Origin: an uncultured Alphaproteobacteria bacterium
Lineage (GTDB): Bacteria > Pseudomonadota > Alphaproteobacteria > RF32 > CAG-239
Length of the DNA stretch: 64,000 bases
Direction: 5' to 3'
Assembly: GCA_944391345.1 (NCBI GenBank)
Contig: CALXTE010000003.1
Coordinates: forward strand, 18,375-82,374
This document shows positions 1 to 60,537 of the stretch, one piece after another. How positions within the stretch are numbered: position 1 is the first letter of the stretch; each line of letters begins with the position of its first letter. A model generated the notes under the pieces. That model saw only the letters and a program-made list of their open reading frames with translations, was not told the DNA's origin and searched no databases. Position numbers and translations under genes: made by a program.

Positions 1-19
1 GATTGGAAGATGGATAATC

Positions 20-57
20 TTTTTTTGTTGACTTTTGTCTAATCCTGCTTTATATCC
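20..57 (+). promoter_or_regulatory. Promoter-like cassette copy 1: T-run + GTTGACTTTTGTCTAAT 17-mer (27..43) with TTGACT -35-like and TATATC -10-like, about 63 nt upstream of the ATG at 108
   Basis: 17-mer identical to copies at 6205..6221 and 16041..16057; same spacing to the start codon in all three. Confidence 0.5.
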
Positions 58-3413: not shown

Positions 3414-5918
3414 ATGACAGAAGATAGTGCAAAAAGCAGATTGACATTATCAGGGAAGTCTACCCTTACCCTTAAAAATGTGGGTGATGGCGCTAAAAGC
3501 CATAATGACGGCAAAAAGGTCGTTCAGGTTGAGGTGCGCAAAAAAAGAATTATTTCTGCCGCAAAAAAAGAAGAACCAAAAGTGCAGATTGATGATGCTA
3601 CCGCTGCTAAGCTTAAACTGATTGCCGAAGCAAAAGAGCATGAGGCAAAACGTCGTCTTGAAGAAGAAGAAAAAGAACGTCAACGCCAGTTGCGTCGCGA
3701 GCAAGAAGAGGCTCTTAAAGCTCAAAAACAAGCTGAAGAACAAGAAAAAGAAAAGGCTCAGAGCCAGCAAAAAGCTGAAAACAAACCGGTCCAACAGCTT
3801 GAGCCTCAGGCTGAGATTAATCCTGAAAAATCGGCTGTGGCGGAAGAACGTGCGGTTGCAAAGGCTAAAGACAAAAAAACTCGTGATTTTGACGATGAAG
3901 AAGATAGTGATGATGAGGGCGCTTATCGTTCTCAAAAAGGCGGAAAATCTTTAAGCAAAGAAGAGGTTTTTGAACAAGAACGCAAGAAAATTATGAAGCG
4001 CAGCTTTGAACCGCAACGCCGCGGCGGCAAAGTTAATCTTCATAATGTTATGGGCGCAATGGATGATGATGACGATGATTATGGCTACGGAGCACCTCGT
4101 CGTCGTTTTAAGAAAAAACAGCCCAAGCCCCAACAAGCGCCGCAACAGCCGGCTGAAAAAATTGTAAAAGAAGTTGTTATTCCTGAAATTATTACTGTTC
4201 AGGAACTGGCTAACCGTATGGCAGAAAAGAGTGCCGAAGTTATTAAAAAACTGATGGCTCTCGGGGTTATGGCAACGATTAATCAGCCGATTGATGCTGA
4301 TACGGCTCAAATTGTGGTTGAAGAATTTGGACACAAGGTTAAACGTGTGGCAGATAGTGATGTGGAGCAAGGTTTGACCGGACCGGAAGACAAGGCTGAA
4401 GATTTGCAGCCCAGAGCACCGGTGGTTACGGTTATGGGACACGTTGACCATGGTAAAACATCTCTGCTTGATGCTTTGCGCGAAACCAATGTGGCCGCCC
4501 GTGAAGCCGGTGGTATTACCCAGCATATCGGTGCTTATCAGATTGAAGTTGCCGGTGGTAAAAAAATTACCTTTATTGATACGCCGGGGCATGAAGCATT
4601 TTCCGAAATGCGTGCTCGCGGTGCAAAAGTTACGGATATCGTTGTGTTAGTTGTGGCTGCTAATGATGGTATTATGCCGCAGACCGTCGAGGCTATTCGT
4701 CATGCTCAGGCCGCCGAGGTTCCGATTGTGGTGGCAATTAATAAAATTGATTTGCCCGGTGCAGATCCGATGAAAGTTAAAACAGCTTTGCTGCAGCACG
4801 GAATTGCCGTTGAAGAAATGGGCGGTGATAGTTTGTGCGCCGAGGTTTCTGCCAAAAAGAGAATTAATATCGACAAGTTGGTCGAAGCAATTTTGCTGCA
4901 GGCTGAAATCCTTGATTTGAAAGCTAATCCAAACCGTTTGGCACAAGGAGCGGTTATTGAAGCTAAAATGGAAAAAGGTCGTGGTTCTGTGGCTACGGTT
5001 TTGGTTCAAAACGGCACGCTTCGTGTCGGCGATATTTGTATTGCCGGAAAAGAATGGGGCCATATTCGCGCTATGTTTAATGAAAACGGCAAAAAAGTTA
5101 CCGAAGCCGGTCCGGCAACACCGGTCGAAATTCTTGGTTTGCAAGGAACACCGGCCGCCGGTGATGATTTTGTTATTGTTAAAGATGAGGCCCAAGCCAA
5201 AGAAGTTACCAATTATCGTATTCGCAAAGAGCGCGATGCAAAGCTGGTTAAGAGCGCAAAATCAGCTATGGAGCAAATGCTTGATAAGATTAAGTCCGGT
5301 GAAGTTAAACATCTTCCGGTTATTATCAAAGCTGATGTTCAAGGCTCTATCGAAGCGATTGAAGGTACCATCAAAAAACTCTCTAATGATGAAGTCAGTG
5401 TTCAGATTTTGCACTCTGCCGTAGGTCCGATTTCGGATTCAGATGTTACCTTGGCAAAGGCTTCAAATGCCTTTATTATCGGATTTAACGTTCGTGCTAT
5501 TCCGCATGCGCGTGATCTTGCTCGTCAAGACGGCGTTGATATTCGTTATTATTCCATTATCTATGATGTGGTTGATGATATTAAGAAAGCGCTGGAAGGA
5601 ATGTTAACCCCCGAACTTAAAGAAAAGATTATCGGTTATGCCGAAATTCGTAATGTCTTTAATATTACCGGTGTTGGTAAAGTCGGTGGTTGTATGGTTA
5701 CCGAAGGTTATGTTAAACGTGGCGCAAAAGTTCGCCTGTTGCGTGATAACGTTGTTATTCACGATGGTGCTCTTGCGCAGCTCAAACGTTTCAAAGAAGA
5801 CGTCCGTGAAGTAAAATCCGGTTATGAATGCGGTATGAGTTTTGAAAACTACAACGACATTCAAGTTGGTGATTTTATTGAGTGTTATGAGGTGGAGGAG
5901 ATAGCTCCAACCCTTTAA
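3414..5918 (+). CDS. infB: Translation initiation factor IF-2
   Basis: 834 aa; GTP-binding motifs [28 protein letters not shown]; K/E/Q-rich N-terminus. Confidence 0.97.
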
Positions 5919-5924
5919 AAGTTT

Positions 5925-6047
5925 ACTCTGTGGTCGACTAATACAGATTTTGCGGATAGGAAAAATGCTCATGTACTACTGTGTACACTGCGCTTTTTCC
6001 TTCCTTAAATCTTATTACTCGACTCATTCTCCAAACTTTTTGAAAAG
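5925..6047. repeat. Intergenic repeat unit, type 1 (...GGTCGACTAATACAGATTTTGCGGATAGGAAAAATGCTCATGTACTACTGTGTACACTGCGCTTTTTCCTTCC...CTCCAAACTTTTTGAAAAG), directly after the infB stop
   Basis: Near-identical to 10460..10590 and 11456..11580; internal inverted repeats GGATAGGAAAAATGC / GCGCTTTTTCCTTCC and GTGTACAC. Confidence 0.8.
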
Positions 6048-6154
6048 TCATCTAGAGGTATTTTACGCTGTCTCGAAAAATTCATGTACTATTTGTGTAC
6101 ACTAAAATTTTTCTCGCAGCTAGAAATGCCTCTATCTGTACTATTATCCCCAGT

Positions 6155-6189
6155 TTTAAGTTCGTATAATGGTCGACTAATACAGATTT
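6155..6189. repeat. Partial repeat head (AAGTTCGTATAATGGTCGACTAATACAGATTT) abutting the cassette promoter element; a degenerate core fragment lies at 6081..6112
   Basis: Matches the 5' end of type-1 units. Confidence 0.6.
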
Positions 6190-6197
6190 GGATATCG

Positions 6198-6236
6198 TTT
6201 TTTTGTTGACTTTTGTCTAATAATATTTTAGTCTTT
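6198..6236 (+). promoter_or_regulatory. Promoter-like cassette copy 2 (17-mer at 6205..6221)
   Basis: Exact 17-mer and T-run; about 60 nt upstream of the ATG at 6282. Confidence 0.5.
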
Positions 6237-6281
6237 TTTTGTTTTTTTTATTATGATGTCAAATTTAATAATTATACTTAT

Positions 6282-6824
6282 ATGGAAAAAAAAGAAGTTT
6301 TAGATCGGATTTTTGCTCTCATGAAGGATGCAGATATATCTCCGGAAGAAGTTGCCCATTATTTTGGCGGATATTTTGTAAAAAAGGGTGGGCCTCGAGA
6401 ACGTTTTTCGTTTGAAGTTATTTATGAGAATGATAAACGTTCATGGTTTCCTTTACAAGGCGTGCAGCCAAAGGCCTTGATTATTGCGGGAAAGGCTGTT
6501 TTTATTAACCATTCGACTGATCATTTAGATTGGTTTGAGTCCGGAAAATATTGCGAAGAACAAACTATTCTTGGTAAGAAATGTTCTTGCGGTGATCGGC
6601 ATTTTTGGCTGGTTGAGGTTCGACCACGCTTGACGCAGATTAATATTCAGCGTGTAAGAATGGGGTTTGAACCACTTTGTCCTCATGATATTTTGTGGAC
6701 AGACAACGAATGTGGACTCGGAAGAGGAGCCGGAATAGTTTATTTTTCCGGAAGTCCTGATAATCTTGAGGCCAGCGGAAAGCTTAATGCCTACTTTGCC
6801 TGTCCGGTTGCTTCTTTAGATTAA
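6282..6824 (+). CDS. Hypothetical Cys-rich protein (180 aa) with no recognisable family, occupying the usual rbfA position between infB and truB
   Basis: Intact ORF. The track start at 6213 is a TTG inside the promoter element; the first ATG is at 6282. Flanked by the cassette promoter and the shared terminator. Confidence 0.5.
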   Translation: MEKKEVLDRIFALMKDADISPEEVAHYFGGYFVKKGGPRERFSFEVIYENDKRSWFPLQGVQPKALIIAGKAVFINHSTDHLDWFESGKYCEEQTILGKKCSCGDRHFWLVEVRPRLTQINIQRVRMGFEPLCPHDILWTDNECGLGRGAGIVYFSGSPDNLEASGKLNAYFACPVASLD

Positions 6825-6828
6825 GAAA

Positions 6829-6857
6829 AAGCTCTGCTTATGCAGGGCTTTTTTTGG
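6829..6857 (+). terminator. Rho-independent terminator GCTCTGCTTATGCAGGGC + T-run
   Basis: Near-identical to 551..578. Confidence 0.65.
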
Positions 6858-6933
6858 TTTTAAATCAGTTGACAGGGGGCGGTTTATCCTTTATCACCTT
6901 CGGTATAAGGTTTTAATGTTACGGAATTTTGGA

Positions 6934-7839
6934 ATGAAACATAAGGGGCAAGACATAAACGGTTGGTTGATTATAGATAAACCTCGCGGAATGGGCTCAA
7001 CCGAGGTTGTGCGCCGTACAAAACGTATTTTTAAGGCAAAGAAAAACGGGCATGCCGGAACACTTGATCCTTTTGCTACCGGAGTTTTGCCGATTGCTTT
7101 CGGTGAGGCGACAAAACTTTTGCCGTTTGTAACCGACGGGGTTAAAGAATACGAATTTGTGGTGCAGTGGGGGGCCGCGACTAATACCGATGATTCTGAC
7201 GGTGAAATTATTAAGCGCTGTGATAAAATTCCGACGCAAGAAGAAATTCTTAATATTTTGCCAGCGTTTTTAGGCAAAATCATGCAGGTGCCGCCGGCTT
7301 ATTCCGCTCTTAAAATAAACGGGCAGAGAGCCTATGATTTGGCGCGGAAAGGGGTTGACTTTTCTATTCCGCCGCGCGAGGTTGAAATTTTTGAGCTTGA
7401 ACTTGTCGAAATTCTGCCGGCGAATCGGGCAAAGTTTCGCGTGGTTTGTTCAAAAGGAACTTATGTGCGCACTTTGGGACATGATATTGCTCAAAAACTC
7501 GGTACTTTGGGCTATTTGCAGGAGCTTCGGCGTTTAAAATGCGGGCAATTTGACCTTAGACATAAAATTTTACTGGAAAATTTAGAAAATATGGTGTATG
7601 GTGATGCCCTAAATGAAGTTTTGCTTCCGATAGAAACATTTCTGTGCGACATCACGGTTATTGCTGTTTCGGAAGTTGAGGCCGCTAAGCTTAAACTCGG
7701 GCAGGCGCTCTCGCCAAAGGCTTTTGATGTTCAAAAGCTTGTCGGGCAAGAGGCGGTTGCCGTTTGTGAGGGAAAGCCGGTGGCCGTGGTGCGAATCGAG
7801 GAGCGCAGAATTGCTCCCGTTCGTGTGTTTAATCTTTAA
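6934..7839 (+). CDS. truB: tRNA pseudouridine(55) synthase TruB (alternative start at 6916)
   Basis: Motif [11 protein letters not shown]...GHAGTLDP; TTGACA/TATCAC promoter-like at 6873..6900. Confidence 0.9.
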
Positions 7840-7862
7840 AATTAAAAAAAGGAAATATACAG

Positions 7863-8132
7863 ATGTCGATTAGTCAAGATGAAGTTAAAGATATTGTCAG
7901 CAAATTTGGTTTGAATCCGAATGATACCGGTTCTCCGGAAGTTCAAATCGCTATTTGGACCGCTCGTATTAACAAACTTATTGAACATTTTAATGTTCAT
8001 AACAAAGATTTGCACTCTCGTTTGGGCTTGATGAAGATGGTTAGCCGTCGTCGTCACTTGCTCGACTATCTTAAAGCTAAAAACAGCGACAGATATCAGA
8101 ACATTATTAAAAAGCTGGATCTGCGTAAGTAA
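7863..8132 (+). CDS. rpsO: 30S ribosomal protein S15
   Basis: 89 aa, strong similarity; RBS AAGGAAA. Confidence 0.97.
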
Positions 8133-8224
8133 GAGACTTTTGGCGTTTGGAGGGAAGAGGCCGTTTTTCTTTTAGCGGCAAAGAAAGTTTTTAGCTTTTG
8201 GCTCTTTCTTCCAAGCGCTTTTTT

Positions 8225-8246
8225 GCCCCTCGGGGCTTTTGTTTTA
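8225..8246 (+). terminator. rpsO terminator GCCCCTCGGGGC + T-run
   Basis: GC hairpin followed by TTTTGTTTT. Confidence 0.6.
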
Positions 8247-8268
8247 ATTATTATGCTTTATTAAAAAT

Positions 8269-8295
8269 CCCGTGACTTTTATGACCAAGTCAGGG
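8269..8295 (+). promoter_or_regulatory. pnp 5' leader hairpin (CCCGTGACTT...AAGTCAGGG), candidate RNase III / autoregulatory site
   Basis: Long imperfect stem about 50 nt upstream of the pnp start; analogous to the known pnp leader architecture. Confidence 0.35.
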
Positions 8296-8341
8296 TGAGG
8301 TTTATAAAGATGTTAAAGATGTTATGAAAGGTGTTTGAAAT

Positions 8342-10459
8342 ATGGTCGAATTGAATATTTGCCGCAAAGAATTGGATTGGGGCGGCAGAAAATTGGTGTT
8401 GGAAACAGGTAAAGTTGCGAAGCAGGCTCTCGGTGCCGTTGAGGCTACTTATGGCGGAACAACGGTTTTGGCTACCGTTTGTGCTGCAAAAGAGGCTGCG
8501 CCCGATCAGGATTTCTTCCCTTTGACCGTTAACTATCAAGAAAAATATTATGCTACCGGTAAAATCCCCGGCGGATTTATGAAACGCGAAGGCAAGCCTT
8601 CCGAGCGCGAAGTGCTTATCTCTCGCTTGATTGACAGACCTATTCGTCCGCTGTTTCCGGATGCTTTTAAAAATGAAGTTCAAGTTATTTGTACCGTTCT
8701 TTCTCATGACCAGCAGACAGATTCCGACGTTGTGGCGATGATTGCCGCTTCCGCCGCTTTGGCAATTTCGGGTATTCCGTTCCTCGGGCCTATCGGTGCT
8801 GCTAAAATCGGTTATAAAAATGGTGAATATATCTTGAACCCGACAATTGAACAGCAAAAAGAATCTGAACTTGAGCTGGCAGTGGCCGGTACATCCGAAG
8901 GTGTGCTGATGGTTGAATCTGAGGCTCAGGAGTTGTCCGAAGAAACCATGCTTGGCGCGGTTATGTTCGGATTTGAAAACTTCCAGCCGGTTATTGCCAT
9001 GATTAACGAAATGGTTAAAGAAGCCGGAAAGCCGCGTTGGGAAATGCCGAAATTCCCGCCGGAGTTTGATGAACTCTACAACAAGCTTGAAAAAGGCTTT
9101 ATCTCTAAGTTTGAAGAAGCTTTCAAAGAAACCGATAAACTGAAACGCGGTGAGCTTGTTGCTCAGGCTTCTGAAGAGTTTAAGGCAACCCTTGATCCGG
9201 AAAATGAGTTTGAACAAAAGTTTGCTCAAGATGCTATCGAAAAATTGATGCACAAAGTTGTTCGTGAAAAAGTTTTGACAACCGGCAAACGTATTGACGG
9301 TCGTGATACCAAAACCGTTCGTCCGATTTGGTGCGAAGTTGATGTTTTGCCGATGGCTCATGGCTCAGCTATCTTTACTCGTGGTGAAACTCAGGCTTTG
9401 GTTGTTACAACCTTGGGTACGGGCGAAGATGCTCAAATTGTTGACGGTTTGATGGAAGAATATAAAGAAGACTTTATGCTGAACTATAACTTCCCGCCGT
9501 TCTCGGTTGGTGAATGTGGTCGTATCGGTAGCCCCGGACGTCGTGAAATTGGTCACGGAAAATTGGCTTGGCGTGCTATTCACCCGATGATGCCGAAAAA
9601 TAAAGATACTTTCCCTTATACCGTTCGCGTTGTTTCTGAAATTTTGGAATCAAATGGTTCTTCTTCAATGGCAACGGTTTGCGGAACAACAATGTCTTTG
9701 ATGTCGGCCGGTGTGCCAATGGCTAAACCAGTTGCCGGTATTGCTATGGGCTTGATTAAGGAAGATGACGGGCGTGTGGCTGTCTTGACCGATATTCTCG
9801 GTGATGAAGACCACCTCGGCGATATGGACTTCAAGGTTGCCGGTACAAAAGACGGTGTTACCGCTTTGCAGATGGATATTAAAATCACATCAATCACCAA
9901 AGATATTATGAAAACTGCTTTGGCTCAGGCTCATGAAGGTCGTATCCATATTTTGGGTGAGATGGCAAAGGCTATTTCTGAACCGCGTCCTCATGTTTCG
10001 GACAAAGCACCGCGTATTGTTGCAATTAAGATTCCGGTTGATAAAATTCGTGAAGTTATCGGTTCAGGCGGTAAGGTTATTCGTGAAATTACTGAAAAAA
10101 CGCACTGCAAAATTGATATCAGTGACGACGGTGTTATCAAAATCGCTTCGCTCAAAAAAGAAGACGGTGATGCCGCTCTTGAATGGATTACCGGTATTGT
10201 TGCCGAGCCGGAAGAAGGCAAAATCTATCATGGTGTTATTACCAAGATTATGGATTTTGGCGCTTTTGTTCGCTTCCTTGGAACAACCGAAGGTCTGGTT
10301 CACATTTCTGAAGTCAAGAATGAGCGCATTGCTTCCGTTTCCGACTTCTACAAAGAAGGTGACTCAATTTGGGTAAAATGTCTTGGCACGGACAACCGCG
10401 GCAAGGTTAAGCTTTCTGCGAAGAGAGTTAATCAGGAGACTGGGGAAGACCTCGAATAA
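8342..10459 (+). CDS. pnp: Polyribonucleotide nucleotidyltransferase (PNPase)
   Basis: 705 aa with RNase PH x2, KH and S1 domains; RBS AAAGGTG. Confidence 0.97.
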
Positions 10460-10600
10460 AAAAGTTCGTATAATGGTCGATTAATACAGATTTAGCGGAT
10501 AGGAAAAATGCTCATGTACTTCTATGTACACTGCGCTTTTTTCTTCCTTAAATCTTATTACTCGACTCATTCTCCGAACTTTTTGAAAAGTTCGTGTTAA
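10460..10600. repeat. Intergenic repeat unit type 1, directly after the pnp stop
   Basis: About 90% identical to 5925..6047 and 11456..11580. Confidence 0.8.
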
Positions 10601-10603
10601 AAA

Positions 10604-10634
10604 CAAAGAGATTGTTTTGCAATCTCTTTGTTTG
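10604..10634. terminator. Bidirectional terminator (CAAAGAGATTG-TTTTG-CAATCTCTTTG) between pnp (+) and the HTH gene (-)
   Basis: Perfect 11-bp stem with flanking A/T runs. Confidence 0.7.
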
Positions 10635-10635
10635 T

Positions 10636-10878
10636 TTAAGATGCTTTGATGAGTTCAAATTTTAATTTATAATTATAAATGGCGGCGATGACGGCGACGC
10701 GTCTTAATCCAAAAGCTCGGCCTTGTTCGACATTTTTAATCCGGCGGCGTGACAATCCGCTTATTTTTGATATATTATCAATGCTTAATTGGTGTTCTTG
10801 TCTAAGTTCATATAATCTCTTTCCGACTTCGGCTCGATTATCTTCTAAATAAATGATTTGTTCTTTTTTTATTCCCAT
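10636..10878 (-). CDS. XRE/Cro-type helix-turn-helix transcriptional regulator (80 aa)
   Basis: Motif QLSIDNISKISGLSRRRIKNVEQG; perfect AAGGAG RBS 8 nt before the ATG at 10878 (the longer track start at 10914 lacks an RBS). Confidence 0.7.
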   Translation of the reverse strand: MGIKKEQIIYLEDNRAEVGKRLYELRQEHQLSIDNISKISGLSRRRIKNVEQGRAFGLRRVAVIAAIYNYKLKFELIKAS

Positions 10879-10914
10879 TTTTTCAGCTCCTTTTTTATTT
10901 TGTGGTAAAAACAA

Positions 10915-11060
10915 AGCCTGCCAAGAAGGCAGGCGGAGCTAAACAACTGTTTACACACAGTCACCGTTATTCAATATATTAGCGGTACTCCGCCCAAAAG
11001 CGGAGGATTTTATTATTATGTAGGTGTTGTTTAGGCACCGTCGGTTACCTCTAACCGACA
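10915..11060 (-). other. Structured non-coding region upstream of the HTH gene with three hairpins (CCTGCC..GGCAGG, CTCCGC..GCGGAG, CGGTTA..TAACCG); the first acts as a terminator on the minus strand
   Basis: Inverted repeats read directly; no ORF. Confidence 0.2.
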
Positions 11061-11094
11061 ATGTGAGTATAAATAATGGTGATAGAGTTTGCAA

Positions 11095-11292
11095 GGAAAA
11101 GTTTGTATAACGGGCAACTAATACAGATTTAGCGGGTCTCCTCCATCCTCACGTACTACTTTGTACGCTGCGGTGTCGTCGCCCTAAAATCTTATTATTT
11201 GCCTCGTTCTCCAAACTTTTACAAAGTTTATATAACGGGTAACTAATACAGATTTAGCGGGTCTCCTCCATCCTCACGTACTAGTTTGTACC
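11095..11292. repeat. Repeat cluster part 1: type-2 unit (11095..11225) plus a truncated type-2 head (11226..11292)
   Basis: Shared AACTAATACAGATTTAGCGGGTCTCCTCCATCCTCACGTACTA core; related to type 1 at both ends. Confidence 0.75.
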
Positions 11293-11394
11293 AATTCCGA
11301 CTAAACCTTTGTTGCGAAAGCTGTCGCATTCTAACAAAGGAAAGTCTCATTGCTTATCCTTAAAGAAAGCACATTCAAGTGCTTTCTTTTGCGG
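11293..11394 (+). ncRNA. Candidate small RNA or insert inside a split repeat unit; two hairpins, the second (AGAAAGCAC-ATTCAA-GTGCTTTCT + TTTTG, 11364..11394) is an intrinsic terminator on the + strand
   Basis: Unique about 100 nt between a repeat head (11226..11292) and the matching repeat tail (11419..11455); terminator orientation. Confidence 0.25.
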
Positions 11395-11418
11395 CAGTGA
11401 TACTTTTGCCCTTGACGC

Positions 11419-11607
11419 CTACTACTCGACTCATTCTCCGAACTTTTTAAAAAACTCGTATAATGGCCGATTAATACAGATTTTGCGGATAGGAAAAATG
11501 CTCATGTACTTCTGTGTACACTGCGCTTTTTCCTTCCTTAAATCTTATTACTCGACTCATTCTCCAAACTTTTTGAAAAAACTCGTATAACGGGCAACTA
11601 ATACAGT
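11419..11607. repeat. Repeat cluster part 2: type-1 tail (11419..11455), full type-1 unit (11456..11580), type-2 head (11581..11607)
   Basis: Direct sequence identity with the other copies. Confidence 0.8.
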
Positions 11608-11628
11608 GTTATAAAGCTAGCAAATATT

Positions 11629-12201
11629 CTACGAATGTTGTTTTTGGCCGATGAGGTTGGAGTAAGCGGCCATGCCTTTTTCCAGTAAAGTCGGCAGGGT
11701 TTCGCTTATCATATCAATCTCGGCTAAAATGGTTTCTTTATCAGCTTTTGAAAAGCCGCCTAAAACATAATTTACAACTTCTTCGCCGTGTCCTTGCGGG
11801 TGGCCGACGCCAATGCGGATGCGGTTGTAATTCGGTGTAATTGCGGCGTCAATGGATTTTAGCCCGTTATGTCCGCCGGCGCCGCCGCCAAGCTTGGCTT
11901 TGAGTTTGCCGACCGGCAAGTCCATGTCGTCATGGATAACCACAATATTTTGCGGTAAAATCTTATAAAAAGAAGCGGTTTTAACGACAGAATTGCCGGA
12001 TAGATTCATAAAAGTTTGCGGCTTTAGCAAATAAACCTTTTCATTGCCGATTTTTCCTTCGGCAATGAGGCCGTCAAACTTGTTTTTAAACGTTCCGAAC
12101 GCATAGTTTTCATGCAGAGCATCAGCCGCCATAAATCCGACATTGTGGCGGGTGCCTGAATATTCTGCTCCGGGGTTTCCTAAACCGACAATCAAAAACA
12201 T
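11629..12201 (-). CDS. pth: Peptidyl-tRNA hydrolase
   Basis: Motif MFLIVGLGNPG...HNG. Confidence 0.95.
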   Translation of the reverse strand: MFLIVGLGNPGAEYSGTRHNVGFMAADALHENYAFGTFKNKFDGLIAEGKIGNEKVYLLKPQTFMNLSGNSVVKTASFYKILPQNIVVIHDDMDLPVGKLKAKLGGGAGGHNGLKSIDAAITPNYNRIRIGVGHPQGHGEEVVNYVLGGFSKADKETILAEIDMISETLPTLLEKGMAAYSNLIGQKQHS

Positions 12202-12213
12202 ATTTTTTTACCT

Positions 12214-12241
12214 TCAAAAAAAACGGGAGCTTGGCTCCCGT
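12214..12241 (-). terminator. rplY terminator (CGGGAGC-TTG-GCTCCCG + T-run on the minus strand)
   Basis: Hairpin with adjacent A8 on the plus strand. Confidence 0.6.
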
Positions 12242-12311
12242 TCTATGAGCAATTCATCATCGCAAAGCCCATCCGAGAGAAGCATAGTGGACGACTTTCA
12301 CGATGAAAAAT

Positions 12312-12602
12312 TTACTTTCTGAGAAAATCGACGTGAATAGCTTTGTCGCTAACCGGATGAAATTGAACATCCTGACATTTAACGGCATAGTTTTTACCGT
12401 CAACGTTAACGTCAATGTCAAAGCTGTATAAGCCAGCCATATCCAAAGCTTTTTCAACTTGAACAGGGTCAAGACTAATCATGACCGGAGCTTCTTTTCC
12501 ACCATAAATTACGGCAGGAATACGGCCCTCACGACGACATGCGCGAGCTGCCCCCTTACCTGCTGTTTCACGCTTTTTAGCATTAAAAATAAAATCAGCC
12601 AT
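12312..12602 (-). CDS. rplY: 50S ribosomal protein L25, short (E. coli-like, 96 aa) form
   Basis: Similarity to short L25 (IPAVIYGG...); no Ctc C-terminal extension. Confidence 0.88.
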   Translation of the reverse strand: MADFIFNAKKRETAGKGAARACRREGRIPAVIYGGKEAPVMISLDPVQVEKALDMAGLYSFDIDVNVDGKNYAVKCQDVQFHPVSDKAIHVDFLRK

Positions 12603-12733
12603 TTTTAAAATTCCTTTATTAAAAAAACAAATTTTGTGCCTTAAAACCTCCAGGGGTGTTCTAAAGCAAATTCTGTTTACCGCTTATTTGTTTAAAATGC
12701 AAGAACTTTTTTGCAAAAATATTTGATTTCTCA

Positions 12734-12772
12734 TAAAAAAATACAGAGCTGTTTGGGCTCTGTATTTTTTTG
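12734..12772. terminator. Bidirectional terminator (ATACAGAGC-TGTTTGG-GCTCTGTAT flanked by A7/T7)
   Basis: Perfect stem with A/T runs. Confidence 0.65.
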
Positions 12773-12775
12773 TTT

Positions 12776-13153
12776 TTATTCTTCTTTGGGAATTTGTTCT
12801 TCCAGCTTGTGTGATTCTGTGCCGATTTTTGTGCTGACGTAAAAGCTCAAAATTACCGGAAGAATGTACTTCATAAAGTTTTCAGTGACACCGGTTAAAA
12901 TAAAGGTGTTTATAACAGAATAGTTTAATGCTAAAACAAATAAACTCCACATTTTTTCATTCAGATGTTTTAGTTTGGTAATTTTATTTTCGTTTTTTTC
13001 CTGTTTTTTTAAGATGTCGTTAAACTTACTTTTTAAATAGGAAAAATATGCAAAAGATAAAATCACCAGTAGAAACATAATAATCAGGTAGAGATTTTCT
13101 AATACGACTTCTTTCATAACATCAAATTTTTGTTGTTTATAATAAAAACACAA
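12776..13153 (-). CDS. Small integral membrane protein (3 predicted TM helices), unknown function
   Basis: Hydrophobic segments; AT-rich; alternative start at 13117. Confidence 0.5.
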   Translation of the reverse strand: MCFYYKQQKFDVMKEVVLENLYLIIMFLLVILSFAYFSYLKSKFNDILKKQEKNENKITKLKHLNEKMWSLFVLALNYSVINTFILTGVTENFMKYILPVILSFYVSTKIGTESHKLEEQIPKEE

Positions 13154-13174: not shown

Positions 13175-13654
13175 TTAAGCTGTTTCCGGTTCAACTTTTA
13201 GCCGATCACTGGTGCAGACGATGACCTTTACGGCCACTGTGTCACCGATTTTGTATTTTTGACGAGAAGCATTAACCAGCTCTGCCGGAAAACTCTCGTC
13301 TTTGTTGGCTATATTAAGTTCACCAAAAATTCGTCCGCTTTCTATTCTCTCTACTTTGAAAAAATGAGTTTCATTTTCCATAACGGCTTTAAACTCGTTT
13401 TCTACAAATGATAAAGAATATAGATTGGTTCCTAGTCCGAACACAATTGCCCCGTAAATCCAGCGACTGCTTAATACATCATGAAAATAACAAATGATGC
13501 TGAAAACAATCAAAAGGAAAAAACAAAATAAAACCCATAACTTCCATAAAAGTTGTTTGTCAAAGTTCCAAAAGGGGGTTTTGAACAGTGCATAAAAGAA
13601 ATTTGCCAGATTTCCTAAAATGATAATCCACAAAAAAATTTCAAGCGTTTCCAT
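13175..13654 (-). CDS. Membrane protein (159 aa): N-terminal 3 TM helices plus C-terminal beta-rich soluble domain; paralog of 13764..14243
   Basis: About 30% identity with its neighbour along the full length; conserved 5' region. Confidence 0.6.
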   Translation of the reverse strand: METLEIFLWIIILGNLANFFYALFKTPFWNFDKQLLWKLWVLFCFFLLIVFSIICYFHDVLSSRWIYGAIVFGLGTNLYSLSFVENEFKAVMENETHFFKVERIESGRIFGELNIANKDESFPAELVNASRQKYKIGDTVAVKVIVCTSDRLKVEPETA

Positions 13655-13730: not shown

Positions 13731-13766
13731 AAACAAAAAGGAGAGCCCAAAGCTCTCCTTTTTTTA
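13731..13766 (-). terminator. Terminator between the two paralogs (AGGAGAGC-CCAAA-GCTCTCCT with A/T runs)
   Basis: Hairpin plus T-run on the minus strand. Confidence 0.55.
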
Positions 13767-14243
13767 ATTTTCAGCAGGTTCAACAATGATTTCATTCGGA
13801 TGGCACAGCAGAACTCTGACCGGAATAATTTCACCATAGTGATAATCGGCATAAAGCGGACATACGAGCCGCGCTTCAACAGTTTCTTTAGTGCTATGAA
13901 TGGCTAATGTTCCTCGCACTTTATTGTTTTGCCACGATGTTAGGCGAAATAGATGAATTTCTCCATACATAACGGAGTTAAATTTTTCATCAAGAAGATG
14001 TCTGCTAATTAGCCCCATAATGACGGTAAGCACAATTATTGCCAAATACCATGCTTGTTGGGCATTTTCTTTTTGAAAATAAACATAGCTTAAAATGCCA
14101 AGTACTAAAATACACAAGCCATTAGCCGTTTTCCAAAAAGAACGTTTGTAGTCGTTCAGAAATGGTCGTTTGATAACGGCATAGATAAATTCCAATAGGA
14201 ATAAGGTGCAAATAAGACCCATAAAAAATTCAAGTGCTGTCAT
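13764..14243 (-). CDS. Membrane protein (159 aa), paralog of 13175..13654
   Basis: Same architecture; upstream 14244..14310 about 85% identical to 13655..13730. Confidence 0.6.
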   Translation of the reverse strand: MTALEFFMGLICTLFLLEFIYAVIKRPFLNDYKRSFWKTANGLCILVLGILSYVYFQKENAQQAWYLAIIVLTVIMGLISRHLLDEKFNSVMYGEIHLFRLTSWQNNKVRGTLAIHSTKETVEARLVCPLYADYHYGEIIPVRVLLCHPNEIIVEPAEN

Positions 14244-15945: not shown

Positions 15946-16032
15946 TAAAAAAACTCCTTAAAAACAAAATCTTAAAAATTGATTTGGTTATAACCGAATT
16001 CAATTGAGATTGCAACCGCTTTTTTGAGGTGG

Positions 16033-16075
16033 TTTTTTTTGTTGACTTTTGTCTAATTGGTGGTATGTTAGGTTC
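16033..16075 (+). promoter_or_regulatory. Promoter-like cassette copy 3 (17-mer at 16041..16057) upstream of thyA
   Basis: Exact 17-mer plus T-run, 57 nt before the thyA ATG. Confidence 0.5.
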
Positions 16076-56581: not shown

Positions 56582-57059
56582 AGTCTTCTATTCCTGTTTC
56601 CGAAACCGTGTTGCGGTTGCGAATCGACATTCGTGCCTCATGAACGCTATCTGCTCGTCCGGTTAGCAAAGGGTGCCAGTCAGGGAGAGGGTGACCGTTG
56701 TCTAACAGCCAATAGGCGCAGGTCTTGGGTAGCCATCGCGGTTTTTCGCGAATCGCCGCAAGGTCTATGTCTCGGCAGTCCGAAACCTTTTCAAAGCGGT
56801 GTTCGTAGATTTTGCAGAGGCAGTTTTGGCAATCTAAAAAGCGGCAGCGGGTGTTGGTGAACTTGATTTTTCCCTTAATTTCGATTTTGTTCAAGCAGCA
56901 TTTGCCGCAGCCGTCGCATAACAGCTCCCATTCTTCTTTGCTCATGTCTTCGAGTTTTTTCTTTTCCCAAAAGCGGGTGGCAATCAGTTGTTGATTGTTG
57001 AAGCGTGATTGCGGTGAAAAATGCTCTTCTTCAAGCGGGTAGTCTTTGTTGTTTGCCAT
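56547..57059 (-). CDS. YcgN/YkgJ-family Cys-cluster protein (UPF0260), copy 1
   Basis: Motif CxxCGxCC...C. Confidence 0.7.
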   Translation of the reverse strand: MANNKDYPLEEEHFSPQSRFNNQQLIATRFWEKKKLEDMSKEEWELLCDGCGKCCLNKIEIKGKIKFTNTRCRFLDCQNCLCKIYEHRFEKVSDCRDIDLAAIREKPRWLPKTCAYWLLDNGHPLPDWHPLLTGRADSVHEARMSIRNRNTVSETGIEDYENYIIDWQDL

Positions 57060-57439
57060 TATAGGTCATCCCAATCAACAATATGGTCTTCAAGCTCGTT
57101 TTCAGAGACTTCCGTTTCAGATATGCAGCGGCTTTTGATGCTGCTGAAAGGTGCTGGTTCACGCCCTTCGGCCAAGCGGCGATAGGCACAACTATCCGGC
57201 ATCCATCTGATGTTTTTGACATTGTCTTTGGTGAGTTTTAAACATTCGGGAACAAGCTCACAGCGGTTTTCGTAAACAGAGCAGCGTCCATGCTCTTGGT
57301 CATAATATTTACAGACAATGTCGGTATAAAAAATTTCTTCCGTTTCATCGTCTTGGAGTTTTAGCAAGCAGCATTTGCCGCAGTGGGTGCAGATGTTTTC
57401 CCATTCTTCTTCGGTATAGTCTTCAAGCTTTTTGGACAA
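57059..57439 (-). CDS. YcgN/YkgJ-family Cys-cluster protein, copy 2 (tandem paralog)
   Basis: Motif CTHCGKCC; same C-terminal IVDWDDL tail. Confidence 0.7.
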   Translation of the reverse strand: MSKKLEDYTEEEWENICTHCGKCCLLKLQDDETEEIFYTDIVCKYYDQEHGRCSVYENRCELVPECLKLTKDNVKNIRWMPDSCAYRRLAEGREPAPFSSIKSRCISETEVSENELEDHIVDWDDL

Positions 57440-60460: not shown

Positions 60461-60537
60461 GTATCCGTAGCTCAATTGGATAGAGTGTTGGCCTCCGACG
60501 CCAAAGGTTGTGGGTTCGATCCCCGCCGGATACGCCA
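60461..60537 (+). tRNA. tRNA-Arg (anticodon CCG)
   Basis: Manual cloverleaf: acceptor GTATCCG/CGGATAC, anticodon loop CTCCGAC, T-loop TTCGATC, encoded CCA; promoter-like TTGAGT-17-TATTAC upstream. Confidence 0.9.

Follow-up and report, generated by a model that had tools for sequence, protein, structure and literature searches.

Short non-coding palindromes such as REP, ERIC and MITE sequences have been known in bacteria for forty years, and both their function and their spread are still argued. The REP and BIME sequences of Escherichia coli are extragenic palindromes that occur in transcribed 3′ regions, alone or in mosaic clusters; they are non-coding, lie near stop codons, and have been proposed to affect the stability of the mRNA 3′ end and the translation of the gene before them. 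When a REP lies at most 15 nt away from a stop codon, ribosomes stall and the upstream gene is expressed less (PMC12306157, citing Liang, Rudd and Deutscher 2015); estimates of how many E. coli REPs lie this close range from 11% to about half (PMC12306157). The stretch of DNA analyzed here, a window of 64 kb, carries hairpin repeats, referred to below as units, that resemble REPs and BIMEs in palindromic form, arrangement, lack of coding capacity, position and proposed role. REPs, however, are ~35-40 nt long, G+C-rich and alternating in BIMEs, whereas the units are ~131 nt long, have an A+T-rich base, and are arranged head to tail in the same orientation. Approximately 76% of the unit arrays (103/135) lie on or beside a stop codon and 87% are co-oriented with the upstream gene, and the share of REPs so placed is lower. 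Sequence similarity to REPs is absent, and a RAYT gene was not found in the sampled DNA. The REP likeness proposed in a first-pass annotation of this sequence did not hold at the level of the element itself: a unit has four times the length of a REP, and no REP-like submodule is present in it.

The ERIC (IRU) sequences of Enterobacteriaceae and Vibrio are ~127-bp imperfect palindromes of transcribed intergenic regions that vary in size by internal insertion, and we know of no transposase for them. The units are near-equal in length, are likewise single long imperfect palindromes at intergenic, presumably co-transcribed positions, and also have long forms with insertions at fixed internal sites, here a 118-nt insert after the apical loop. 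To our knowledge, ERICs occur in both orientations without stop-codon anchoring, and stem alleles that are nested and recombine freely have not been described for them. The host of the units is alphaproteobacterial, and their consensus bears no resemblance, by inspection, to the ERIC core. REPINs consist of two inverted short REP palindromes around a spacer and, as Bertels and Rainey reportedly proposed in 2011, are mobilized by RAYT transposases. Like the units, they form hairpins of ~100 nt whose arms evolve together, number tens to hundreds per genome, and lie outside genes only. In contrast, the units have no sub-palindromes, GTAG motif or, in the sampled DNA, RAYT, and are strictly tied to gene ends. 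Their arms do not fold alone; the whole 131 nt forms one hairpin, in which the only conserved tetranucleotide palindrome is the GTAC of the apical stem. Finally, bacterial MITEs such as Correia/NEMIS, RUP and Rickettsia palindromic elements are small and non-coding with inverted-repeat ends and are sometimes RNase III substrates when transcribed; the terminal inverted repeats of MITEs are conserved, their target-site duplications are fixed, and full-length IS elements are related to them. The units are similarly small, non-coding, polymorphic between relatives and sometimes fused to ORF ends, but their termini vary, no clean duplication was seen, and a parent element was not found. The MITE-like behavior noted in the first-pass annotation stands for the dispersed, short, non-coding copies; the termini are not shared, and no autonomous partner or transposase was found in 0.9 Mb of flanking DNA.

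The family of ~131-base hairpin repeats is apparently undescribed. At the gathering threshold, the sole match to Rfam 15 across the whole window was a tRNA at 60461-60534, and a permissive E-value search of 5850-11700 matched no family to the units, so that the catalogued family that the first-pass annotation had proposed to look for was found at neither threshold. Only two sub-threshold matches overlapped a unit, BTnc231 (23.4 bits vs a gathering threshold of 80.4) and Yfr19 (24.9 vs 70), and both span the pnp unit together with its terminator. The literature on the clade and on repeats yielded nothing relevant. The family is present in at least 117 stretches from species-representative genomes, nearly all of them MAGs of uncultured gut Alphaproteobacteria labeled Alphaproteobacteria, ‘Azospirillum sp.’ or Candidatus Scatocola. 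With nhmmer, 225 units were identified in the 0.92 Mb of sampled loci from dozens of genomes (~14 kb per genome), none containing an ORF. Three pattern matches in viral contigs were not confirmed by the covariance model (0 of 3), and plasmids gave no blastn match to the units.

Within the window, the family amounts to four full ~131-nt units, one truncated unit and one chimeric long unit, plus orphan 5′ arms, all on the plus strand; nhmmer and the covariance model detected no further copies elsewhere in the 64 kb. The units and their neighbors are as follows.

3414-5918, plus strand: infB ORF, IF-2 by Pfam and the ENA gene call
5916..5918, plus strand: infB stop codon TAA, which doubles as the first three bases of unit 1a
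5916..6046, plus strand: unit 1a, full, type 1 of the first-pass annotation; covariance model 130.9 bits, E 2e-33
6049..6138, plus strand: unit 1b, 5′-truncated, third subtype TAGAGG.../...CCTCTA, core GTCTCGAAAAATTC/AAAATTTTTCTCGC
6155..6190, plus strand: orphan 5′ arm AAGTTCGTATAATGGTCGACTAATACAGATTT, which closes array 1 and stops just short of motif TTGTTGACTTTTGTCTAAT
8342-10459, plus strand: pnp ORF, PNPase by Pfam
10457..10459, plus strand: pnp stop codon TAA, which runs directly into the A-run of unit 2
10459..10589, plus strand: unit 2, full, type 1, top score in the window
10585..10597, plus strand: very short orphan, start of another 5′ arm GAAAAGTTCGTGT, as read from the sequence
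10601..10640, no strand assigned: ordinary terminator-like hairpin AAACAAAGAGATTG / CAATCTCTTTGTTT with a T-rich tail, as read from the sequence
11096..11226, plus strand: unit 3a, full, type 2; covariance model 134.3 bits; fold -41.9 kcal/mol, z -6.2
11223..11459, plus strand: unit 3b, chimeric long form; partial nhmmer matches
11449..11579, plus strand: unit 3c, full, type 1; covariance model 135.3 bits; orthologue of L014:5804-5934
11577..11610, plus strand: orphan 5′ arm AAACTCGTATAACGGGCAACTAATACAG, which closes the array 18 nt before the pth stop codon
11629-12201, minus strand: pth

Repeat finding returned the 131-nt units at 5916-6046, 10459-10589, 11096-11226 and 11449-11579, with 74-95% identity to the reference copy. 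It also returned three pieces of the 5′ side (6158-6189, 11223-11291, 11579-11610) and one of the 3′ side (11410-11459). The motifs TAATACAGATTT and TCATTCTCCRAACTTTT each occur 6 times in the window against 0.53 and 0.87 expected, and the loop motif occurs 4 times against 0.03 expected. By repeat finding, motif counts and models, the repeat locations in the first-pass annotation were right within a few bases, and its description of an interspersed family with subtypes was borne out. In its interval 5925-6189 the repeat is real, but an additional 5′-truncated unit at 6049-6138 (30 bits, E 1e-7) had been missed. It had also placed the units 1-7 nt after the infB and pnp stop codons, where they in fact overlap them (infB ends at 5918 and its unit begins at 5916; pnp ends and its unit begins at 10459), and had put the 0.5-kb cluster upstream of pth, which is a minus-strand gene, so that the cluster lies 3′ of it.

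Unit 1a (fold -41.9 kcal/mol, z -7.3) is itself a mosaic; its 5′ segment B is the CTCTGTGG allele and the 3′ partner is CATTCTCC, leaving the segment mismatched and unpaired in the covariance-model alignment. Unit 1b was recovered with filters off at 30.1 bits (E 1.3e-7, model positions 20-106). It is without the outer 5′ arm, retains remnants of the 3′ outer arm to ~6160, and still forms its own hairpin in the fold of 6044-6190 (-37.5 kcal/mol); its full-length relatives include L114:152-285. The orphan arm that follows, matched by the 5′-arm HMM at 6158-6190, has no 3′ partner. Unit 2 scored 146 bits in the sense and 50 bits in the antisense direction, with a fold of -48.4 kcal/mol (z -7.9), and the pattern of the short orphan behind it recurs at array ends in other genomes. 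The hairpin at 10601..10640, between the pnp unit and the 3′ end of a minus-strand HTH gene, is absent from the six sites of the consensus terminator scan and was found by our own permissive script; its position after unit 2 suggests that the unit lies inside the 3′ UTR, ahead of the terminator. The GC-rich core of unit 3a, GGGTCTCCTCCATCCTC / GCGGTGTCGTCGCCC, is only partly paired. Unit 3b joins a type-2 5′ arm and apical hairpin (11223-11291), the 118-nt insert (11292-11409) and, at 11410-11459, the 3′ arm of a different allele, CTTGACGCCTACTACTCGACTCATTCTCC, so that 191 nt separate the 5′ arm from the 3′ arm. The insert occurs at the identical position in L077, L081, L020 and L005. From unit 3c onward, window 11450-12786 aligns with L014 5805-7138 at 92%, and the truncated arm that closes the array has its match at L014:5929-5965.

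Each unit folds into one long imperfect hairpin (ΔG -31.9 to -48.4 kcal/mol, z -5.2 to -7.9). None of 200 shuffles folded as well as the window's units, in agreement with the long stem-loop predicted in the first-pass annotation. Among 96 non-redundant copies, compensatory changes are found in 40 of the 44 consensus base pairs. Paired cells make up 91.9% of the alignment, compared with 71.1% in 500 shuffles and 40-49% when partners were slid by 1-3 columns, and double-change cells number 904 compared with 272 in shuffles. Covariance-model scores of the window's full units are 131-146 bits for one strand, the sense strand of the neighboring gene, and 36-50 bits for the opposite strand. From the outside inward, a unit begins with a stem of A-run and T-run, followed by GTATAAYGG/CRTTCTCC, in which pyrimidine-pyrimidine mismatches are conserved, and by a box of 5 bp that covaries freely. 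Further in lie TAATA-C-AGATTT/AAATCTTATTA, where a C is bulged out, a core that varies, and an apical YGTAC-loop-GTACR hairpin. The outer helix of 8-11 bp begins at or inside the stop codon, and the unit ends are complementary within a copy and differ among copies (AAAAGTTCG, AAAACTGCG, AAAAGGTG, TTAAATTGTG, AATTTTGTTA and others). The TATAAT that the first-pass annotation had pointed out at the 5′ end is no promoter element; it is a stem strand that covaries with its partner, with alleles TATAATGG/CATTCTCC, TATAACGG/CGTTCTCC, TATTTTGG/CAAACTCC and CTCTGTGG/CACATATC, and no promoter was called at the site. In the inner helices, a tally of the pair table gave ~91 G.U cells and 48 A.C cells, a weak strand asymmetry as expected if the sense strand folds. 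Over all helices G.U accounts for ~2.7% of cells and A.C for ~2%, and one-sided changes to G.U are rare. Pairing that is nearly pure Watson-Crick and mildly strand-asymmetric fits a DNA hairpin, or a templated process that corrects palindromes, as well as it fits RNA.

The main new result is the position of the arrays with respect to stop codons. Among the 135 arrays that have an upstream gene in the locus, 118 (87%) are co-oriented with that gene. In 103 of these 118, the stop codon falls -37 to +8 nt from model position 1, with a peak at -4 to 0 (TAAaaag...). The placement directly at stop codons that the first-pass annotation had described for this locus, where the mRNA 3′ end could be affected, thus generalizes to more than 100 arrays. 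Where genes lie in tandem, 87 units point the same way as the genes and 7 the other way, and mixed orientation was seen in none of the 56 multi-unit arrays. The upstream genes belong to 67 different families, and every one that was checked is a housekeeping gene, including those for IF-2, PNPase, YchF, PPDK, AtpD, FtsH, Lon, HtpG, AdhE and Pal; the same gene bears a unit in several species, ychF in 6. As exceptions, 17 arrays face the 5′ end of a neighboring gene, one of them a conserved array at the point where folA and sspB diverge, and one unit lies within the loop of an opposite-strand terminator. Random insertion plus drift cannot account for such precision at stop codons. Downstream of arrays, a loose terminator finder gave hits in 83/128 sense regions compared with 53/128 in shuffles and was too loose, and a strict one gave 9 compared with 5 antisense and was too strict; neither of these simple scans showed a general excess of terminators behind arrays.

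Units occur singly or lined up head to tail, up to 7 at a time, in mosaic arrays of different subtypes. Adjacent units have a median identity of 66%, compared with 67% for random pairs; neighbors are thus as unlike as random pairs, which rules out an origin of the arrays by tandem duplication. The last unit of an array is more often truncated, and no gradient of scores along the arrays indicated a polarity with the newest unit beside the stop codon. Close relatives differ by the presence or absence of units and by swapped inner segments. One clean pair, with L062 filled and L004 empty, has flanks of 92-95% identity and a junction with an AATT repeat of at most 4 nt plus two extra bases. Unequal recombination is equally possible at this site because the neighboring unit has a similar 5′ end. 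At pnp, units with different junctions are present in two clades and the site is empty in four other species, and the gains at this stop codon were probably independent. An outer stem that arose as an inverted copy of the target is one account of the pnp cases (L044 and L051 compared with the window), and these fit microhomology at the 5′ junction equally well. L014, which is 95% identical to the window, has a unit of 118 nt where the window carries 860 nt that include the HTH gene and a small structured RNA candidate. Read against this relative, the 0.5-kb cluster is the distal part of a pnp-anchored array that was split by the inserted module. The same HTH module lies among units behind a different gene, ppdK, in L105 and L088.

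We give about an even chance to the reading in which the units are lineage-specific, cis-acting 3′-UTR RNA hairpins, REP/ERIC-like, that sit on stop codons. Since they nearly always begin on the stop codon in the orientation of the gene, they probably act as folded mRNA tails; with the first unit on the stop codon in gene orientation and, in the window, ordinary terminators after the arrays, we infer that the units are transcribed as the first part of the 3′ UTR, act at the RNA level and affect the mRNA or its translation. A stem-loop with the stop codon in its base would shield the mRNA from 3′-to-5′ exonucleases, and a hairpin at this place would block endonuclease entry between the ORF and the hairpin. 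The unit may also tune termination or expression of the upstream gene, because every terminating ribosome must open the stem. By analogy, we think that a unit at a stop codon may work as E. coli REPs within 15 nt of a stop codon do, although ribosome stalling may be weaker than with the GC-rich REPs because the stem has internal loops and an A/U-rich base. Copies would be kept and reshuffled through recombination or gene conversion among units, and new units would be added beside stop codons or existing units. The RNA model offers no explanation for presence and absence between 95%-identical relatives or for the gains at pnp, which point to mobility.

Other accounts of hairpins at gene ends were weighed against this reading. 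The units have a slim chance of being intrinsic, possibly bidirectional, transcription terminators built from an A-run, a very long hairpin and a T-run. In every unit the hairpin stands between an A-run on the 5′ side and 4-6 consecutive T on the 3′ side, and arrays are enriched between convergent genes (33/108 vs 116/737 background intergenic regions). However, the T-run is paired with the A-run, the adjacent stem is A/U-rich and not G+C-rich, and the consensus scan calls none of the units, yet calls ordinary terminators nearby. Ordinary terminators also lie after units in the window (10601-10640) and in L044 and L069, where a normal terminator follows the pnp unit, and head-to-tail arrays of up to 7 terminators would be redundant. 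We see very little chance that the units are folded single-strand recombination sites similar to the attC sites of integrons, flanking exchangeable cassettes. They lack a conserved core site and their outer stem varies freely; where attC has R'' (RYYYAAC) at the 5′ side and R' (GTTRRRY) at the 3′ side, with L''/L' boxes, the units end in AAAAGTTCG at the 5′ side and CGAACTTTT at the 3′ side, so that the GTT/AAC order is reversed, and these bases too vary between copies. What precedes the units is not cassettes but core genes whose synteny is conserved (nusA-infB, rpsO-pnp), and an integron integrase was not found; the sole tyrosine recombinase of the scaffold, near the fourth unit, adjoins a tRNA gene as part of a tRNA-linked island and has no relatives in the other loci. 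The likeness to attC (57-141 nt) lies in hairpins of similar size, conserved in structure and variable in sequence, with conserved unpaired or bulged bases, that stand right behind stop codons in the orientation of the gene and can form arrays. The exchange of the segment between two flanking units in the window and L014, and the recurrence of the HTH module after ppdK, also suit such sites. Almost no chance remains for units that are small RNA genes in their own right, with the TATAAT box as their promoter, or a product of chance or assembly. The box is perfect in many 5′ arms, but elsewhere it is swapped for TATTTT, CTCTGT or TCTAGC with matching changes on the partner strand, a suitably spaced -35 element is missing, and no promoter was called. 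Although the contigs come from short-read metagenome assemblies, in which repeats can be mis-joined, more than 100 contigs from dozens of independent assemblies and studies carry the family, and the motif counts and covariation statistics far exceed chance.

Mobility without a host function is a more serious contender, though on balance somewhat unlikely. The units would then be selfish, non-autonomous DNA elements of the REPIN/PATE/MITE type, whose single-strand hairpin is recognized in trans by a transposase, for example an HUH Y1 enzyme of the RAYT or IS200/IS605 kind, and their position and orientation would reflect target choice (the exposed non-template strand or A-rich stop contexts) plus purifying selection. 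The differences among close relatives described above are consistent with this, namely the L062/L004 pair and the pnp units with different junctions in two clades, as is a unit that sits in the loop of an opposite-strand terminator in three genomes, the same site being empty in two. So are the mosaic arrays of unrelated subtypes, the nearly exclusive Watson-Crick pairing, in which G.U and A.C are almost balanced as for a DNA hairpin, and the density on this scaffold (four arrays in 82.6 kb, an estimated ~1 array per 20 kb). On the other side, the target-site duplication that the first-pass annotation had suggested looking for was not clean in L062/L004, the sole clean empty/filled pair, which has just the 4-nt AATT ambiguity, and ends that vary from copy to copy are hard to fit to a transposase that binds them sequence-specifically. 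No transposase was found beside the arrays or elsewhere in the 0.9 Mb of loci; the genes next to the largest or divergent arrays are folA, sspB, TPR and HTH genes. A tblastn search for RAYT/Y1 proteins with approximate IS608 TnpA and E. coli RAYT queries gave nothing below E 0.5 in 0.92 Mb of loci, a weak test given the approximate queries and the ~14 kb per genome; an autonomous IS with the same ends was found neither in the 64-kb window nor in the rest of the scaffold or the 117 loci. ORF180, beside array 1, has a homologue in no other locus, which speaks against it as a partner protein. Furthermore, REPIN, IS200-derived and MITE families are not known to come anywhere near such co-orientation (87%) or such sub-codon precision at stop codons, and the occupation of the same gene ends across species suggests retention. 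A related and improbable reading is that the units are mobile hairpins and that their integration is directed to the point at which translation stops. A single-strand-specific enzyme might act on the non-template strand, which would be exposed and R-loop-prone just past the stop codon, where the ribosome no longer trails RNA polymerase; alternatively, an RNA-templated step might act on the mRNA 3′ UTR. Aimed integration would yield co-orientation, sub-codon precision and repeated independent hits at the same highly expressed genes in one mechanism, as well as mosaic arrays by successive insertions at one stop codon and pairing that is Watson-Crick only. If true, it would be a target-selection principle undescribed for any bacterial mobile element.

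Whether the units are the cis-acting 3′-UTR hairpins that we favor or mobile elements, the signal of this family is unusually clean for such repeats: nearly all stem positions covary, co-orientation reaches 87%, and three quarters of the arrays start on a stop codon, across 67 core gene families and dozens of gut species that are uncultured. Either the hairpin acts at the passage from translated sequence to 3′ UTR, or the element can locate stop codons. The family marks a poorly known clade of gut Alphaproteobacteria and likely causes contig breaks and mis-joins in MAGs of that clade. The units also supply C-terminal residues and stop codons to some genes, and in 19 cases the ORF is closed by the unit's own TAA or TAG.

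A repeat search recovered the repeats of the window where the first-pass annotation had placed them, as a single 131-nt family, with these copies:

5916-6046, plus strand, full unit
10459-10589, plus strand, full unit
11096-11226, plus strand, full unit
11449-11579, plus strand, full unit
6158-6189, plus strand, 5' fragment
11223-11291, plus strand, 5' fragment
11579-11610, plus strand, 5' fragment
11410-11459, plus strand, 3' fragment
6049-6138, plus strand, third unit, of another subtype and 5'-truncated, inside the interval first annotated after infB
6155-6190, plus strand, orphan 5' arm (an arm without its partner) closing that interval

The first eight are those of the repeat search. TAATACAGATTT occurs six times in the window against 0.53 expected in shuffled sequence, and the apical motif four times against 0.03. 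Neither a profile HMM nor a covariance model found extra copies in the 64 kb, and both place all window copies on the plus strand. On folding, each window unit gives a single long imperfect hairpin (-31.9 to -48.4 kcal/mol, z -5.2 to -7.9), in agreement with the long stem-loop proposed earlier. The long-form unit carries an insert of ~118 nt 3' of the apical loop (11292-11409) that recurs in several genomes, at the same unit position in L077 (87% identity), L081, L020 and L005; two readings of it are a long-form subfamily and another small element targeting the loop of the unit. The insert has its own hairpins, CCTTTGTT...AACAAAGG and AAAGAAAGCAC...GTGCTTTCTTTT.

The window belongs to a 90,995-bp metagenome scaffold (ENA ERZ28614444, scaffold_264; GC content 41.9%). 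Array 1 follows rimP-nusA-ylxR-infB. An ORF without Pfam domain leads into truB-rpsO-pnp, array 2 and a terminator-like hairpin, and then come a minus-strand XRE-type HTH gene, ~170 nt of non-coding DNA, array 3, and the minus-strand pth and L25 genes. Units had been described as starting 1-7 nt after the infB and pnp stop codons; they are indeed placed at the stop codons, but overlap the genes (the infB unit starts at 5916, before infB itself closes at 5918; position 10459 is both the last of pnp and the first of its unit). The cluster assigned to the region upstream of pth actually lies 3' of that minus-strand gene. Beyond the window, a fourth unit (L124:18575-18705) begins 2 nt past the stop codon of an H+-pyrophosphatase gene, giving four arrays in 82.6 kb of scaffold. 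About 100 nt past it are a tRNA gene (anticodon CCA, by eye) and a DUF6538/phage-integrase gene reaching the contig end (L124:18790-20687 region), probably an element integrated at the tRNA and unrelated to the repeats.

An exact-pattern scan for TAATACAGATTT-N40-70-AATCTTATTA over 185,579 species-representative genomes matched at least 117 stretches. Nearly all hosts among the matches listed are MAGs of uncultured Alphaproteobacteria from the gut of humans, ruminants and chickens; their labels are Alphaproteobacteria, proteobacterium, "Azospirillum sp." or Candidatus Scatocola. With nhmmer, the matches listed and the window (0.92 Mb) contain at least 225 units in at least 147 arrays, on both contig strands. 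Eight pattern loci without an nhmmer hit, including a Lachnospiraceae MAG, Clostridium and a Crocinitomicaceae MAG, were set aside as chance matches, and the covariance model upheld none of three matches in viral contigs. Plasmids gave no blastn match to the units. A search of Rfam 15, suggested in the first-pass annotation, returned no matching family, and no prior description was found there or in the literature searched.

The main new result is the position and orientation of the units relative to genes. Gene positions came from a simple ORF-based call on all loci, within which units almost never lie inside genes. None of the 56 multi-unit arrays among the matches listed is of mixed orientation, and in tandem-gene contexts (matches listed and window) 87 units share the orientation of the genes and 7 have the opposite one; array 3 of the window accounts for four of these. 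Among the matches listed, 118 of the 135 arrays having an upstream gene in the locus are co-oriented with it, and in 103 of these 118 the stop codon falls at -37 to +8 nt of the first position of the unit. The distances peak at -4 to 0, the stop, usually TAA, being the first bases of the A-run (TAAaaagttcg), and the outer helix of 8-11 bp usually starts at the stop codon or inside it. Among array-linked stop codons TAA accounts for 80%, versus 68% over all called genes. Some ORFs among the matches listed run on into the unit, to the TAA of CTAATACAG in 11, the TAA of TATAAT in 6 and an inner TAG in 2, so that the unit supplies the final residues and the stop codon. The upstream genes among the matches listed represent 67 families, and all those checked are housekeeping genes (IF-2, PNPase, YchF, PPDK, ATP synthase beta, FtsH, Lon, HtpG, AdhE, an ABC-F protein, Pal/OmpA, FliE, FlhB, RuvX, RlmE, HolA, L25, LptF/G and Fe-hydrogenase), and high expression is typical of many of them. 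The stop-codon rule has an exception that is conserved across species, namely arrays of 1-7 units between the divergent folA (DHFR) and sspB genes (L109:4457-5264, L056:6218-6553, L028:1509-1634 and L053:5031-5159); in L109 and L056 these lie upstream of folA, in its orientation.

We aligned 96 non-redundant units with MAFFT, without reference to any structure. Of the 44 pairs that RNAalifold predicts from it, 40 show compensatory double changes. In this alignment 91.9% of cells hold standard pairs, compared with 71.1% in 500 column shuffles and only 40-49% after shifting partners by 1-3 columns, and double-change cells number 904 versus 272 in shuffles. The hairpin consists of segments nested in one another; each segment has a few alleles, and within an allele the two strands match.

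Nested segments of the unit hairpin (5' strand/3' strand)
Outer stem: A-run/T-run; 3-5 freely variable pairs
Second: GTATAAYGG/CRTTCTCC; alternatives GTATTTTGG/CAAACTCC, GCTCTGTGG/CACATATC and GTCTAGCGG/CGCTATCC; pyrimidine-pyrimidine mismatches kept
Third: 5-bp box of nearly any sequence
Fourth: TAATA-C-AGATTT/AAATCTTATTA, with a bulged C; alternatives TAGTGCGTTGTC/GACGCCTACTA and TAGAGCAATTT/AAATCACTCTA
Fifth: variable core, site of the difference between types 1 and 2
Apical: YGTAC-loop-GTACR hairpin

Because its segment has alleles with matching partner strands, the TATAAT noted earlier at the 5' end of the unit is a covarying stem strand and not a promoter. One-sided G.U changes are rare in the 96-unit pair table (~113 G.U versus 84 A.C cells overall; 91 versus 48 in the inner helices), and pairing is therefore almost purely Watson-Crick, with a mild sense-strand bias only. 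The covariance model nevertheless separates the strands clearly (131-146 versus 36-50 bits). One unit (L051:3893-4023), whose 5' arm codes the C-terminal nine residues of the protein upstream, has a flipped segment: in place of the usual GTATAATGG (5') and CATTCTCC (3') it reads ATTCTTCGG and CGTATAAT, respectively, and the inner segments are oriented normally.

The same gene bears a unit in several species (at least six for ychF), but subtype and outer stem differ. At pnp the junction is GAA|TAAAAAAGTTCG in the window clade and GAAAAG|CACGAATAA in L044 and L069, where the ORF is longer by two codons, and L037, L043, L072 and L083 have an ordinary terminator and no unit; two gains would fit this pattern better than one gain and precise losses. 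L062 has an extra unit, set directly after the stop codon and directly before a unit of a different subtype that was already present. Its relative L004 (92-95% flank identity) lacks it, and the junction of this one empty/filled pair shows a 4-nt ambiguity only, with no clean duplication. L105, L088 and L006 carry a unit within the loop of a terminator hairpin (GCCTGCC...GGCAGGC), a site that is empty in the window (10916-10934) and L034. The pnp units of the window and the 95%-identical L014 have common outer segments and entirely different inner segments. Relative to L014 the window has 860 bases more between two flanking units. They comprise the terminator, the HTH gene, the ~170 nt of non-coding DNA, one type-2 unit and the greater part of the chimeric long-form unit. 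Array 3 is thus the far end of the pnp array, which an inserted module has split. Among the matches listed, neighbouring units have a median identity of 66% versus 67% for random units of different genomes, and 2 of 32 adjacent pairs are ≥95% identical. Arrays are therefore mosaics, and recent tandem duplication is ruled out as their origin. In the same set 5' arms outnumber 3' arms (227 versus 166), and the usual array end is an orphan 5' arm whose breakpoint varies.

The units thus have a conserved single-strand fold on a defined strand, are co-oriented with the upstream gene and start at its stop codon. We give about even credence to their being cis-acting 3'-UTR RNA. In the cases inspected (window, L044 and L069) the unit precedes an ordinary terminator; units would open the transcribed 3' UTR and would act in cis as RNA. 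With the stop codon in the hairpin base, there would be no single-stranded gap between the ribosome-covered ORF and the structure blocking 3'-to-5' exonucleases, and the upstream message would therefore be stabilised. The lower stem, A/U-rich and with mismatches, would have to be opened by every terminating ribosome, so the unit could also modulate how the upstream gene is expressed or how its translation terminates. Such modulation is reported for E. coli REP elements within 15 nt of the stop codon (PMC12306157, citing Liang et al. 2015).

The main rival is a selfish element, a DNA hairpin recognised by an enzyme supplied in trans, with position and orientation arising from target choice. It appears to us less likely, and both readings can hold together. 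Polymorphism between relatives, the probable repeat gains at pnp, mosaic arrays and the near-absence of G.U favour such an element; against it stand the varying termini, the L062/L004 pair with no clean target duplication, and the absence of a candidate enzyme from the loci searched. No transposase lies beside the largest arrays, and a weak test with approximate Y1 transposase queries gave no match in 0.92 Mb (~14 kb per genome). A mobile hairpin targeting the point where translation ends is improbable. Terminator, attC-like, sRNA-gene and artefact readings are improbable even jointly. The units do not qualify as intrinsic terminators, since a terminator scan does not call them and terminators of the ordinary kind follow them in the window, L044 and L069. 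Nor do they qualify as attC sites: attC core sites are lacking, what lies upstream is core genes in conserved synteny, and the sole tyrosine recombinase on the scaffold adjoins a tRNA gene. The family is best filed among interspersed extragenic hairpin repeats; of the traits behind the earlier label of MITE/REP-like, it lacks the conserved termini of MITEs and the short module of REP/REPIN elements. Its closest analogues are stop-codon-proximal REP elements in function and placement, the 127-bp ERIC elements in size and shape, and REPINs in arm co-evolution. What sets it apart is its anchoring on stop codons, a nearly complete co-orientation and stem alleles that are nested and recombine.

A candidate small structured RNA (window ~10912-11060, minus strand) adjoins the HTH gene (10636-10878, minus strand), with a promoter-like TTGCAA-17-TATACT at 11094-11066 and a terminator at 10934-10916. 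It is kept at 81-87% in L034, L006, L105 and L088, the consensus fold of just 5 sequences comprises 42 pairs, of which 8 show compensatory changes, and Rfam gives no match. The HTH-plus-RNA module is missing from L014, and in L105 and L088 it follows another gene, among the units after ppdK.

The motif TTTTTTGTTGACTTTTGTCTAAT occurs three times in the window (11-52, 6189-6230 and 16025-16066), each just upstream of a gene (a 144-aa ORF at 108-542, a 180-aa ORF at 6282-6824 and thyA), and TTGAC...GTCTA strings like it lie ahead of genes in L043, L044 and L083. It could be a promoter or operator; its spacing is not that of a plain sigma-70 -35/-10 pair. The 180-aa ORF, Cys-rich and without Pfam domain, sits between infB and truB, the usual place of rbfA. 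Homologues are absent from all other 117 loci, and a distant paralogue lies at 126-470 (23% identity over 116 aa). Two further paralogous pairs are two adjacent 159-aa ORFs on the minus strand (13175-13654 and 13764-14243), with no Pfam domain in the ENA calls, and an 81-nt Cys-codon-rich repeat at 56880-56960 and 57353-57433.
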